From a virus (lineage: Duplodnaviria > Heunggongvirae > Uroviricota > Caudoviricetes): DNA of 4,506 nucleotides. Location: IMG/VR virus record IMGVR_UViG_2534681657_000006; one strand, given 5' to 3'. Position 1 is the first letter of the stretch. The number at the start of each line of letters is the position of its first letter. The translations under genes and the position numbers were made by a program. This document shows positions 1-4,506 of the stretch, one piece after another. Under the pieces are notes generated by a model. The model was not told the DNA's origin. It did not search any database and saw only the letters and a list, made by a program, of their open reading frames with translations.

Positions 1-224
1 ATGTGCTGCTGTGCTGTTTTGGTTCATCGGTGCCGAATCATGCCGCCATTTACTGCGGCGACGGTGAGCTGCTGCACCATATTCCTGAACAACTGAGTAA
101 ACGAGAGAGGTATACCGACAAATGGCAGCGACGCACACACTCCCTCTGGCGTCACCGGGCATGGCACGCATCTGCCTTTACGGGGATTTACAACGATTTG
201 GCCGCCGCATCGACCTTCGTGTGA
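1..224 (+). CDS. K: Tail assembly protein K, C-terminal part (5' end lies outside the window; first full codon at 3, stop TGA 222-224)
   Basis: Open frame runs from the window edge to TGA at 222-224. The translation (...AAIYCGDGELLHHIPEQLSKRERYTDKWQRRTHSLWRHRAWHASAFTGIYNDLAAASTFV) matches my recollection of the C-terminus of lambda gpK, and the gene sits immediately upstream of and overlapping gene I as in lambda. The M at position 3 in the ORF track is a GTG internal codon, not a real start. Confidence 0.8.
   Translation, partial: VLLCCFGSSVPNHAAIYCGDGELLHHIPEQLSKRERYTDKWQRRTHSLWRHRAWHASAFTGIYNDLAAASTFV
103..110 (+). promoter_or_regulatory. Putative Shine-Dalgarno for gene I (GAGAGAGG), 11 nt upstream of the ATG at 122
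   Basis: Purine-rich GAGAGAGG at 103-110 inside the 3' end of K, followed by ATG at 122. The spacer is on the long side. Confidence 0.4.
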
Positions 225-769
225 AAACGGGGTCTGAAGCCATCCGGGCGCTGGCCATGCAGATCCCGGCGTTTCGTCAGAAACTGAATGACGGCTGGTA
301 TCAGGTGCGCATTGCCGGGCGTGATGCAGGTGAAACCGAATTGTCTGCCCGTCTTAATGAGCCGCTGGCAAATGGTGCCGTGATCCACATCGTGCCGCGT
401 CTGGCGGGAGCTAAAAGTGGCGGTGTGTTTCAGGTGGTGCTGGGGGCGGCGCTGATTGCGGTGGCATGGTGGAACCCTGTGGGCTGGCTGGGTGCCGCGG
501 CTGTATCGGGCATGTATGCGGCAGGGGCCAGTATGATCCTGGGCGGAGTGGCGCAGATGCTGGCACCGAAAGCCAGGACGTCCACGGCAGCAAGTACAGA
601 TAACGGCAAACAGAACACCTATTTCTCCTCACTGGATAACATGGTTGCCCAGGGCAATGTTCTGCCTGTTCTGTACGGTGAAATGCGCGTGGGGTCACGC
701 GTGGTTTCTCAGGAGATCAGCACGGCAGACGAAGGGGATGGTGGTCAGGTTGTGGTGATTGGTCGCTGA
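122..769 (+). CDS. I: Tail assembly protein I (215 aa)
   Basis: Complete ORF ATG 122 to TGA 767-769. N-terminus MAATHTLPLASPGMARICLYGDLQRFGRRIDLRVKTGSEAIRALA and C-terminus DNGKQNTYFSSLDNMVAQGNVLPVLYGEMRVGSRVVSQEISTADEGDGGQVVVIGR match my recollection of lambda gpI. It has a central Gly/Ala-rich hydrophobic segment. The start lies inside the 3' end of K in a different frame (103-nt overlap), as in lambda. Confidence 0.9.
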   Translation: MAATHTLPLASPGMARICLYGDLQRFGRRIDLRVKTGSEAIRALAMQIPAFRQKLNDGWYQVRIAGRDAGETELSARLNEPLANGAVIHIVPRLAGAKSGGVFQVVLGAALIAVAWWNPVGWLGAAAVSGMYAAGASMILGGVAQMLAPKARTSTAASTDNGKQNTYFSSLDNMVAQGNVLPVLYGEMRVGSRVVSQEISTADEGDGGQVVVIGR

Positions 770-829: not shown

Positions 830-1900
830 ATGGGTAAAGGCAGCAGTAAGGGGCATACCCCGCGCGAAGCAAAGGACAACCTGAAGTCCACGCAGTTGCT
901 GAGTGTGATCGATGCCATCAGCGAAGGGCCGGTTGAAGGTCCGGTGGATGGATTAAAAAGCGTGCTGCTGAACAGTACACCGGTGCTGGACAGTGAGGGG
1001 AATACCAACATCTCCGGTGTCACGGTGGTGTTCCGGGCAGGTGAGCAGGAGCAGACACCGCCGGAGGGATTTGAATCCTCCGGCTCCGAGACGGTGCTGG
1101 GTACGGAAGTGAAATATGACACGCCGATCACCCGGACCATCACGTCGGCAAACATCGACCGTCTGCGCTTTACCTTCGGTGTGCAGGCACTGGTGGAAAC
1201 CACCTCAAAGGGGGACAGGAATCCGTCGGAAGTCCGCCTGCTGGTTCAGATACAACGTAACGGTGGCTGGGTGACGGAAAAAGACATCACCATTAAGGGC
1301 AAAACCACTTCACAGTATCTGGCCTCGGTGGTGGTGGATAACCTGCCGCCGCGCCCGTTTAATATCCGGATGCGCAGGATGACGCCGGACAGCACCACAG
1401 ACCAGCTGCAGAACAAAACGCTCTGGTCGTCATACACCGAAATTATCGATGTGAAACAGTGCTACCCGAACACGGCACTGGTCGGCGTGCAGGTGGACTC
1501 GGAGCAGTTCGGCAGCCAGCAGGTGAGCCGTAATTATCATCTGCGCGGGCGTATTCTGCAGGTGCCGTCGAACTATAACCCGCAGACGCGGCAATACAGC
1601 GGTATCTGGGACGGAACGTTTAAGCCAGCATACAGCAACAACATGGCCTGGTGTCTGTGGGATATGCTGACCCATCCGCGCTACGGCATGGGGAAACGTC
1701 TTGGTGCGGTGGATGTGGATAAATGGGCGCTGTATCTTATCGGCCAGTACTGCGACCAGTCAGTGCCGGACGGCTTTGGCGGCACGGAGCCGCGCATCAC
1801 CTGTAATGCCTGGCTGACCACCAGCGTAAGGCGTGGGATGTGCTCAGTGATTTCTGCTCTGCGATGCGCTGTATGCCGGTATGGAACGGGCAGACGCTGA
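830..1900 (+). CDS. J: J segment 1 (frame 2); J-like translation ends near 1822, and the last 25 codons before the stop at 1900 are out-of-frame readthrough
   Basis: ORF-track ORF with an SD-supported ATG. The J-like sequence is read through ...RITCNAWLTT, then becomes SVRRGMCSVISALRCAVCRYGTGRR. Confidence 0.6.
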   Translation: MGKGSSKGHTPREAKDNLKSTQLLSVIDAISEGPVEGPVDGLKSVLLNSTPVLDSEGNTNISGVTVVFRAGEQEQTPPEGFESSGSETVLGTEVKYDTPITRTITSANIDRLRFTFGVQALVETTSKGDRNPSEVRLLVQIQRNGGWVTEKDITIKGKTTSQYLASVVVDNLPPRPFNIRMRRMTPDSTTDQLQNKTLWSSYTEIIDVKQCYPNTALVGVQVDSEQFGSQQVSRNYHLRGRILQVPSNYNPQTRQYSGIWDGTFKPAYSNNMAWCLWDMLTHPRYGMGKRLGAVDVDKWALYLIGQYCDQSVPDGFGGTEPRITCNAWLTTSVRRGMCSVISALRCAVCRYGTGRR

Positions 1901-2454
1901 CGTTCGTGCAGGACCGACCGTCGGATAAGGTGTGGACCTATAACCGCAGTAATGTGGTGATGCCGGATGATGGTGCGCCGTTCCGCTACAGCTTCAGCGC
2001 CCTGAAGGACCGCCATAATGCCGTTGAGGTGAACTGGATTGACCCGAATAACGGCTGGGAGACGGCGACAGAGCTTGTTGAAGATACGCAGGCCATTGCC
2101 CGTTACGGTCGTAACGTCACGAAGATGGATGCCTTTGGCTGTACCAGCCGGGGGCAGGCACACCGCGCCGGGCTGTGGCTGATTAAAACGGAACTGCTGG
2201 AAACGCAGACCGTGGACTTCAGCGTGGGTGCTGAAGGGCTTCGCCATGTACCGGGCGATGTCATTGAAATCTGCGATGATGACTATGCCGGTATCCGCAC
2301 CGGTGGGCGCGTGCTGGCGGTGAACAGCCAGACCCGGACGCTGACGCTCGACCGTGAAATCACGCTGCCATCCTCCGGTACCACGCTGATAAGCCTGGTT
2401 GACGGAAGTGGAATCCGGTCAGCGTGGAGGTTCAGTCCGTCACCGACGGCGTGA
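1840..2454 (+). CDS. J: J segment 2 (frame 1); J-like reading extends upstream to about 1822 (QRKAWD precedes the nominal GTG at 1840) and ends near 2412
   Basis: The frame 1 translation QRKAWDVLSDFCSAMRCMPVWNGQTLTFVQDRPSDK... continues the J protein with no SD or start of its own. The nominal start is an internal GTG. Confidence 0.55.
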   Translation: MLSDFCSAMRCMPVWNGQTLTFVQDRPSDKVWTYNRSNVVMPDDGAPFRYSFSALKDRHNAVEVNWIDPNNGWETATELVEDTQAIARYGRNVTKMDAFGCTSRGQAHRAGLWLIKTELLETQTVDFSVGAEGLRHVPGDVIEICDDDYAGIRTGGRVLAVNSQTRTLTLDREITLPSSGTTLISLVDGSGIRSAWRFSPSPTA

Positions 2455-2666
2455 AGGTGAAAGTGAGCCGTGTTCCTGACGGCGTTGCTGAATACAGCGT
2501 GTGGGGGCTGAAGCTGCCGACGCTGCGCCAGCGCCTGTTCCGCTGCGTGAGTATCCGTGAGAACGACGACGGCACGTATGCCATCACCGCCGTGCAGCAT
2601 GTACCGGAAAAAGAGCCATCGTGGATAACGGGGCGCACTTTGACGGCGACCAGAGCGGCACGGTGA
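2424..2666 (+). CDS. J: J segment 3 (frame 3); J-like reading from about 2412 (NPVSVEVQ...) to about 2615
   Basis: Frame 3 encodes [68 protein letters not shown], continuous with the J sequence. The nominal start is an internal GTG. Confidence 0.55.
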
Positions 2667-4306
2667 ATGGTGTCACGCCGCCAGCGGTGCAGCACCTGAC
2701 CGCCGAAGTCACCGCAGACAGCGGGGAGTATCAGGTGCTGGCGCGCTGGGACACGCCGAAGGTGGTGAAGGGCGTGAGCTTCATGCTTCGCCTGACCGTG
2801 GCAGCGGATGACGGCAGTGAGCGGCTGGTCAGCACGGCCCGGACGGCGGAAACCACATACCGCTTCACACAACTGGCGCTGGGGAACTACAGGCTGACAG
2901 TCCGGGCAGTAAATGCGTGGGGGCAGCAGGGCGATCCGGCATCGGTATCGTTCCGGATTGCCGCACCGGCAGCGCCGTCGCAGATTGAGCTGACACCGGG
3001 GTATTTTCAGATAACCGCCACGCCGCATCTTGCGGTTTATGATCCGACGGTACAGTTTGAGTTCTGGTTCTCGGAAAAGCGGATTGCGGATATCAGGCAG
3101 GTTGAAACCGCAGCCCGCTATCTTGGCTCGGCGCTGTACTGGATAGCTGCCAGTATCAATATCAAACCGGGCCATGATTATTATTTTTACGTTCGCAGTG
3201 TGAACACCGTTGGCAAATCGGCATTCGTGGAGGCTGTTGGTCAGCCGAGTGATGACGCATCCGGCTATCTGGATTTTTTCAAAGGCGAGATAGGGAAAAC
3301 CCATCTGGCTCAGGAGCTGTGGACGCAGATTGATAACGGTCAGCTTGCGCCTGACCTGGCTGAAATCAGGACGTCCATTACGGATGTCAGCAATGAAATC
3401 ACGCAGACCGTCAATAAGAAACTGGAAGACCAGAGTGCGGCAATTCAGCAGATACAGAAGGTTCAGGTTGATACAAATAATAACCTGAACAGCATGTGGG
3501 CTGTGAAGCTGCAGCAGATGCAGGACGGACGCCTTTATATCGCGGGTATTGGTGCCGGTATTGAGAACACCCCTGACGGCATGCAGAGTCAGGTGCTGCT
3601 GGCGGCAGACAGGATTGCGATGATTAATCCTGCGAATGGCAACACAAAGCCGATGTTTGTTGGGCAGGGCGATCAGATATTCATGAACGACGTGTTCCTG
3701 AAACGCCTGACGGCTCCCACCATTACCAGCGGCGGTAATCCTCCGGTATTTTCCCTGACACCGGACGGGTGGCTGACGGCGAAAAATGCCGATATCAGCG
3801 GTAACGTGAATGCGAACTCCGGGACGCTCAACAACGTCACGATTAACGAGAACTGTCGGGTTCTGGGAAAACTGTCCGCCAACCAGATTGAAGGCGATCT
3901 CGTTAAAACAGTGGGCAAAGCTTTCCCCCGGGACTCCCGTGCACCGGAACGGTGGCCATCAGGGACCATCACCGTCAGGGTTTATGACGATCAGCCGTTT
4001 GACCGGCAGATTGTTATTCCGGCGGTGGCATTCAGCGGCGCTAAACATGAGAGGGAGAATAACGATATTTATTCGTCATGCCGCCTGATAGTACGGAAAA
4101 ACGGTGCTGAAATTTATAACCGTACCGCGCTGGATAATACGCTGATTTACAGTGGTGTTATTGATATGCCAGCTGGTCGCGGCCACATGACGCTGGAGTT
4201 TTCGGTGTCATCATGGCTGGTAAATGACTGGTATCCCACAGCAAGTATCAGCGATTTGCTGGTTGTGGTGATGAAGAAAGCCACCGCAGGCATCAGTATC
4301 AGCTGA
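2621..4306 (+). CDS. J: J segment 4 (frame 2, same frame as segment 1); J-like reading from about 2615 ([11 protein letters not shown]...) to stop at 4306; contains FN3-like repeats and the distal putative receptor-binding region
   Basis: Longest uninterrupted ORF (561 aa). Two segments, [63 protein letters not shown] and [26 protein letters not shown]...[23 protein letters not shown], look like fibronectin-type-III-like beta-sandwich repeats as reported for J-type central fibres. The nominal start is an internal GTG. Confidence 0.6.
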
Positions 4307-4325
4307 ATTTTATAACCCATATACG

Positions 4326-4352
4326 GGCGCCAGAAATGGCGCCTTTTTTATT
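4326..4352 (+). terminator. Rho-independent terminator downstream of J
   Basis: Perfect 7-bp GC-rich stem GGCGCCA (4326-4332) and TGGCGCC (4337-4343) around a GAAA tetraloop, immediately followed by TTTTTTATT (4344-4352). It starts 20 nt after the J stop. Confidence 0.7.
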
Positions 4353-4362
4353 GCAGAAAAGC

Positions 4363-4368
4363 GAGAGG
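4363..4368 (+). promoter_or_regulatory. Shine-Dalgarno for lom-like gene (GAGAGG), 5 nt upstream of the ATG at 4374
   Basis: GAGAGG at 4363-4368 with ATG at 4374-4376. Confidence 0.55.
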
Positions 4369-4373
4369 TAATT

Positions 4374-4506
4374 ATGCGTAAAGTTTGTGCAGCCATTTTG
4401 TCCGCAGCCATCTGTCTGGCCGTATCCGGTGCGCCTGCATGGGCGTCTGAGCAGCAGGCCACACTGAGCGCAGGGTATCTTCATGCCCGTACGAACGCTC
4501 CCGGCA
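4374..4506 (+). CDS. lom: Lom-like outer-membrane protein (Ail/Lom/PagC family), N-terminal part with signal peptide; 3' end lies outside the window
   Basis: ATG 4374 with SD, open to the window end. The translation MRKVCAAILSAAICLAVSGAPAWA|SEQQATLSAGYLHARTNAPG has a classic Sec signal peptide (basic n-region, hydrophobic core, A-W-A cleavage motif). Position directly downstream of J behind its own terminator is the lambda lom position. Only 44 codons are visible, so family assignment rests mostly on synteny. Confidence 0.7.
   Translation, partial: MRKVCAAILSAAICLAVSGAPAWASEQQATLSAGYLHARTNAPG

Follow-up and report, generated by a model that had tools for sequence, protein, structure and literature searches.

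We propose that the frame break between positions 1821 and 1822 of this 4,506-nucleotide stretch of DNA (hereafter the window), which interrupts the lambda-like tail tip gene J, is a collapsed-repeat consensus artefact of the assembly. Taking the provenance of the sequence together with sequence comparison, we put the probability of this reading at roughly 0.8. The break is real in the deposited sequence, where it is a 1-nt deletion relative to intact genes. We regard it as a product of consensus calling because it lies in a short-read contig bounded by repeats, because the deletions in that contig fall where paralogues differ, and because a sister assembly carries worse damage of the same kind. 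The preliminary description of this DNA read the break, by implication, as a gene mutation, whereas the evidence points to the consensus.

The window holds the tail tip module of a lambda-like prophage, with the genes K, I, J and lom in that order on the plus strand, as in lambda and in annotated prophages and phages. The contig begins inside K and ends inside lom. The 3' end of K (3..224), a tail tip assembly gene of the C40 (NlpC-P60) peptidase type, was assigned from its open reading frame and from homologues annotated 'C40 family peptidase' or 'tail tip assembly protein K'. Gene I (122..769), called as an open reading frame and matching PF06805 (Lambda_tail_I), encodes a 215-aa tail assembly protein, and its start overlaps the end of K as it does in lambda. 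The exact I protein is encoded on six contigs. Between I and J, at about 788-808, lies an inverted repeat, AAACCGCC/GGCGGTTT, recognized at the level of consensus. J spans 830..4306 and is split into four open reading frames. Downstream of it, a GC-rich, terminator-like hairpin with a T-run (4325..4354), found by consensus match, separates J from the 5' end of lom (4374..4506), which encodes an Ail/Lom outer-membrane protein by PF06316 and homologue annotations. In its biology the locus is unremarkable, a lambda-like tail tip module of the usual kind.

The first segment of J is read in frame 2 and covers 830..1821, that is, codons 1-330 and the AC- of codon 331, by both open reading frame call and alignment. 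Across the break, frame 2 runs TGG CTG ACC ACC AGC GTA AGG CGT GGG ATG (W-L-T-T-S-V-R-R-G-M), and the open reading frame that it belongs to (830..1900) ends at a stop codon at 1898-1900. Frame 1 from 1822 reads CAG CGT AAG GCG TGG GAT GTG CTC AGT GAT TTC TGC TCT, and its product, Q-R-K-A-W-D-V-L-S-D-F-C-S, matches lambda J from residue 332 onward. The letters and translations that the preliminary description gave for a move from frame 2 to frame 1 are thus exact, and so is its statement that frame 1 continues J. It had also proposed that one base is missing relative to an intact gene, and this held in alignments to the intact J genes of E. coli 602354, phage vB_EcoS-640R1, lambda, E. coli 55989 and DA33133, where the window has one gap of 1 nt between 1821 and 1822. 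The missing base is J nucleotide 993, the third position of codon 331. In the rebuilt J protein, the Phage-tail_3 domain (residues 330-498, E = 1.4e-43) starts at this break. Eight bases before the break, at 1811-1813, the window has Trp (TGG) at J codon 328, where lambda has Tyr (TAC). This is a natural allele outside the damage, present in 35 of 120 IMG/VR loci, in E. coli 55989 and in O104:H4 strains.

The identity of the missing base bears on how it was lost. The preliminary description had read the break as a contraction of CCC to CC, with an intact gene expected to carry ACC ACC CAG, and this part of its account did not survive comparison. Across 156 intact loci the base is A in 128, G in 28 and C in none, giving ACC-ACA-CAG or ACC-ACG-CAG. 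Among the 36 loci drawn from genomes and phages, 34 have ACC ACA CAG and two have ACC ACG CAG; the 120 IMG/VR prophage loci have A (94) or G (26), with C or T in none. A further 47 complete-genome E. coli records equal window positions 1772-1871 apart from one extra base. That base is A (ACC ACA CAG) in all three of these records that were fetched, and all carry the window's TGG, so the copies with an identical local haplotype share the base found in most homologues. The deletion-bearing form is ACCACCAG and the base-bearing forms are ACCACACAG and ACCACGCAG; the two Cs meet at the junction only through the loss of the A or G that separates them.

A homopolymer contraction would require the ancestral form ACCACCCAG, from which slippage or a sequencing error removed one C. 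There is indeed a CC at the junction, and a restored C would both mend the frame and keep Thr. However, a query with the C inserted found an exact match at none of 10,224 J-gene places, and copies identical to the window in the flanking 100 nt have A. The reads come from the Illumina platform, which is not prone to homopolymer errors. Nor do the two other breaks in J, described below, favor such a process: at break 2 the references read GGC, GGG or GGT before AAT and never GGA, and break 3, where they read GAG or GAA before GCC, would be a run contraction only if the lost base were G. Judged by these comparisons, contraction at break 1 appears essentially refuted, and we consider it very improbable as an account of the break.

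J is interrupted twice more downstream. Segment 2, in frame 1 (1822..2411), carries codons 332-527 and the GG- of codon 528; break 2 (2411..2412) lacks one base in GG[N]AAT, where intact homologues have C (53), G (23) or T (18). Segment 3, in frame 3 (2412..2614), carries codons 529-595 and the GA- of codon 596; break 3 (2614..2615) lacks one base in GA[N]GCC, where intact homologues have G (47) or A (40). Segment 4, in frame 2 (2615..4306), carries codons 597-1159 and the stop. The called open reading frames accordingly lie at 830..1900 (frame 2), 1840..2454 (frame 1), 2424..2666 (frame 3) and 2621..4306 (frame 2), all on the plus strand, and the deposited pieces of J measure 356, 204, 80 and 561 aa. 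These three 1-nt deletions, after 1821, 2411 and 2614, are the only indels in J; there is no insertion, and together they bring the gene back to its original frame after 2614. All three remove third codon positions (codons 331, 528 and 596) that are common synonymous polymorphisms in the population.

Restoring one base at each site yields a 3480-nt open reading frame of 1159 codons with no internal stop, within the length expected of a single J reading frame (about 1130-1165 codons), where the deposited sequence has four. The frame change is thus not a chance effect: translated, the restored gene shows 83% identity to lambda J and has the domain architecture of lambda-like J proteins (TipJ/gpJ), a result for which the fragments were searched as well: FNIII-A_GpJ, Phage-tail_3, Ig_J, Ig_J_second, Phage_Tail_Tip and Ig_GpJ_C all score above their curated cut-offs. 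The N-terminal fragment matches gpJ chains in the PDB at E of about 1e-224. The failure of J to appear as a single open reading frame is most likely a property of the assembly rather than of the gene.

We also considered that the frame change might be functional, through programmed -1 ribosomal frameshifting or a phase-variable J switch. Programmed frameshifting is indeed known from another place in lambda-like tail operons, at G/GT. Here, the existence of a frame change is all that speaks for recoding. The slippery X XXY YYZ heptamer is absent at CTGACCACCAGCG, and no conserved two-frame layout accompanies the break, since J is single-frame in all homologues; three separate shifts would be required to read the deposited gene, and the CC run is too short for phase variation. 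We judge recoding to be the least probable of the explanations considered, scarcely to be entertained.

The 356-aa fragment is encoded on one public contig only, APXG01000018.1 (GCA_000356445.2), which is 4506 bp long, identical to the window and assigned in GenBank to Escherichia coli 2860650. GenBank enters the J fragments as separate proteins (ENB03682.1, ENB03685.1). One trivial source of lost bases, the stripping of IUPAC ambiguity codes (R, Y and R at the three sites), was examined and rejected: the public contig is itself 4506 bp and the GenBank proteins are frameshifted fragments. Strain 2860650 is an ETEC isolate from Bangladesh (ST443, CS5+CS6; accession APXG00000000, run SRR446794) that was sequenced on a HiSeq 2000 with 100-bp reads and assembled with the Celera Assembler (Sahl et al. 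2017, PMC5469772). The same authors ran SPAdes 3.6 as well. Provenance and methods together make the window one complete, short contig from an overlap-layout-consensus assembly of short reads.

The region occurs in multiple copies in E. coli. Matches to the window occur in 4674 of 5426 complete E. coli genomes, at a median of three places per genome, and genomes related to the source strain have two to five matching places each. Each related ETEC genome has at least two J copies: ETEC 602354 (CP025847) carries an L001 and an L004 type, as we call them, and ETEC E1779 has one chromosomal J (LR883006) and another, L038, on a 46-kb circular replicon. E1779, going by its isolate name and L5 label, presumably shares the lineage of the source strain (ST443, CS5+CS6). 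L038 (NZ_LR883007.1, 'plasmid 2' of E1779) is a circular lambdoid phage genome with frameshifts flagged in its tape measure, K, J, lom and tail fibre genes, all at other positions than the window's; these frameshifts may be long-read errors, or may mark a decaying or episomal prophage. Both ends of the contig lie in stretches about 99% identical between the J-region copies of this lineage. Near-identical stretches are where assemblers break, and a multi-copy region whose contig ends in such repeats is what would be expected of a collapsed repeat.

The two halves of the contig relate differently to these copies. Positions 2837-4506 (1670 bases) are 100% identical to L001, the chromosomal J prophage shared by 602354 and E1779. 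Positions 1-2836 show 67 differences from that same prophage, and their alleles are those of other copies of J, I and K; the character of the contig changes sharply at 2836/2837. For the haplotype at 830-2836 we found no parent among complete genomes, the best of 15,357 places reaching 98.4%. Three other contigs with the exact I protein (L161, L163 and L164) are no closer to the window, with many synonymous differences. Three J copies from relatives of 2860650, namely L001 and L004 from 602354 and L038 from E1779, together explain all columns of 830-2836 except two substitutions (979 and 2304) and the three deletions. Building this stretch from them needs at least 17 parent switches. This mosaic test is partly trivial, as at a biallelic site any sequence will mimic a mix of two divergent references. 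J alleles in nature are mosaic too: controls needed 4-26 switches overall, close natural alleles 4-9, and distant alleles more, with 28-39 private differences.

All three deletions fall in columns that differ among the three lineage copies, which make up 100 of 2010 columns (P = 1.2e-4). With the two E1779 copies alone, 56 of 2010 columns differ and the same coincidence has P = 2e-5; against seven general references, P = 8e-4. The errors thus coincide with differences between copies. A biological deletion has no reason to choose synonymous polymorphic sites, whereas a consensus drawn from mixed reads does.

Searches for the same damage elsewhere were negative. With a 100-nt query, the site-1 deletion was absent from 5426 complete E. 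coli genomes (best match 100/101), and the exact pattern at that site gave no matches in IMG/VR, GTDB species genomes or JGI metagenomes. The three larger J fragment proteins are each found on the one contig only. We observed one assembly with comparable damage, contig AQDJ01000090.1 (L160; 5861 bp) of E. coli 2865200, a strain that shares a table with 2860650 (Sahl et al. 2017, PMC5469772). Its J (879-4344) is called as five open reading frames and has 23 deletion events and no insertions in the first 2.4 kb, within a stretch of about 1.2 kb. Sixteen of the 23 touch polymorphic columns, compared with a background of 9% (P = 3e-10); one coincides exactly with site 3 of the window, and a second overlaps site 2. 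So many deletions over about 1.2 kb, 23 in all, cannot be of biological origin. Errors of this type thus recur in a second assembly of the pipeline, and no independent sequence searched has the site-1 deletion. The pattern in L160 looks like a systematic consensus problem in that assembly set.

Two further sets of contigs came up in these comparisons. One is a draft contig with a neighbouring accession, AQAB01000066.1 (L162; GCA_000356805.2), which carries the window's exact I protein. At about 5880-6754, small deletions set its K apart from that of the window (near window positions 46, 59-61 and 113), and the called K protein is 203 aa long rather than 247. This contig, 35.7 kb long, stops right where I meets J, which would be expected of an unresolved repeat in the 5' part of J. 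The other set (L007-L036) consists of short contigs of roughly 1x coverage that carry a lambda-haplotype J in unrelated genomes, among them Neobacillus, Kitasatospora, Enterococcus, Shewanella, Pseudomonas and Bradyrhizobium; contamination of those assemblies with phage lambda DNA is the most likely source.

The principal alternative is a genuine pseudogene, in which one lambdoid prophage of 2860650 lost three single bases of J. Its tail tip protein would be truncated at codon 331 and it would form no infectious particles, an instance of ordinary prophage decay. The deletions do stand in the deposited record, where GenBank gives the fragments as separate proteins, and defective E. coli prophages with frameshifted tail genes are common, as the J, K and lom genes on the 46-kb replicon of E1779 illustrate. 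Several points keep this reading alive. Between 2837 and about 3800, where L001- and L004-type copies are 93-98% identical, the window is purely L001-type, contrary to what simple collapse would predict; of about 100 polymorphic columns only three were dropped; and the copies used for comparison were taken from relatives. Against it, three independent deletions would all have had to strike third-position polymorphic sites (P about 1e-4) in a gene with only two private substitutions and no insertions, a tally that we infer to be unlike the spectrum of neutral decay. Decay of a single prophage also fits poorly with the fact that, of all sequences searched, this one alone has the site-1 deletion and the larger three fragment proteins, with a 5' J haplotype that as a whole has no counterpart elsewhere, and with a sister assembly that shows the same damage to an implausible degree. 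We consider a pseudogene unlikely. Less probable still, to our minds, is that the three deletions are genuine in a particular sense, as a very recent loss of the tail tip gene at sites polymorphic among co-resident prophages. If that were true, it would hint at error-prone recombination or mismatch correction between paralogous prophages that deletes mismatched bases.

A collapsed-repeat consensus artefact could have arisen as follows. In genomes of this ETEC lineage there are several lambdoid prophages, and their K-I-J-lom modules share 93-100% identity across the first ~2 kb of J; judging from its relatives 602354 and E1779, strain 2860650 would itself have several such copies. Reads from these paralogues may have been layered into one multiple alignment, giving a consensus that mixes their alleles. 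At three of the differing sites (A/G, C/G/T and G/A) no base would have been called and the column would have been dropped. This would probably have happened because the alternative bases were put in staggered columns so that the gap outvoted each base. Such a loss would be easiest at near-even allele proportions or with three alleles; at site 2 the three lineage copies indeed carry three different bases. The genes beneath the consensus are probably intact J genes, each encoding a 1159-aa tip attachment protein.

Break 1 is thus probably best filed as a collapsed-repeat consensus error and not as a feature of the organism. This carries a caution, given that at least two J fragments (356 and 561 aa) sit in protein databases under different names and that the apparent J pseudogene could be miscounted as prophage decay. 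Deletions at sites polymorphic between copies are a signature of consensus errors that mix paralogues, and looking for it is a simple way to screen draft E. coli genomes with several prophages for false frameshifts, at least among this project's assemblies.

Set beside known systems, the window's J is a typical lambda J (TipJ) family member. Lambda gpJ (NP_040600.1; cryo-EM structures 8IYK and 9E7M) is the same gene, with the same K-I-J-lom order and the same six Pfam domains, and the 83% identity of the rebuilt protein extends over its full length; the window's J differs in being split, as deposited, into four open reading frames by three 1-nt deletions. It also differs from lambda J in the central coiled region and the C-terminal receptor-binding domain, where nucleotide identity is about 45-57%, a divergence that is usual among lambdoid J alleles. 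The closest relative is the gpJ of the 602354 and E1779 chromosomal prophage (WP_095908817.1; 1159 aa), a prophage that matches the window at 98.4% identity from end to end and at 100% over 2837-4506, with a J of equal length once the three bases are restored. The gene for WP_095908817.1 is intact, whereas the window departs from it at 46 positions in 830-2836, where it carries alleles of other co-resident J copies. The damage itself resembles the collapsed-repeat consensus errors of short-read overlap-layout-consensus assemblies, which likewise occur in short, repeat-bounded contigs that mix paralogue alleles, place indels at inter-copy SNPs, consist of deletions only and recur in assemblies from the same pipeline. 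The extent varies, with three of about 100 heterogeneous columns lost in the window compared with 23 events in the sister contig L160.
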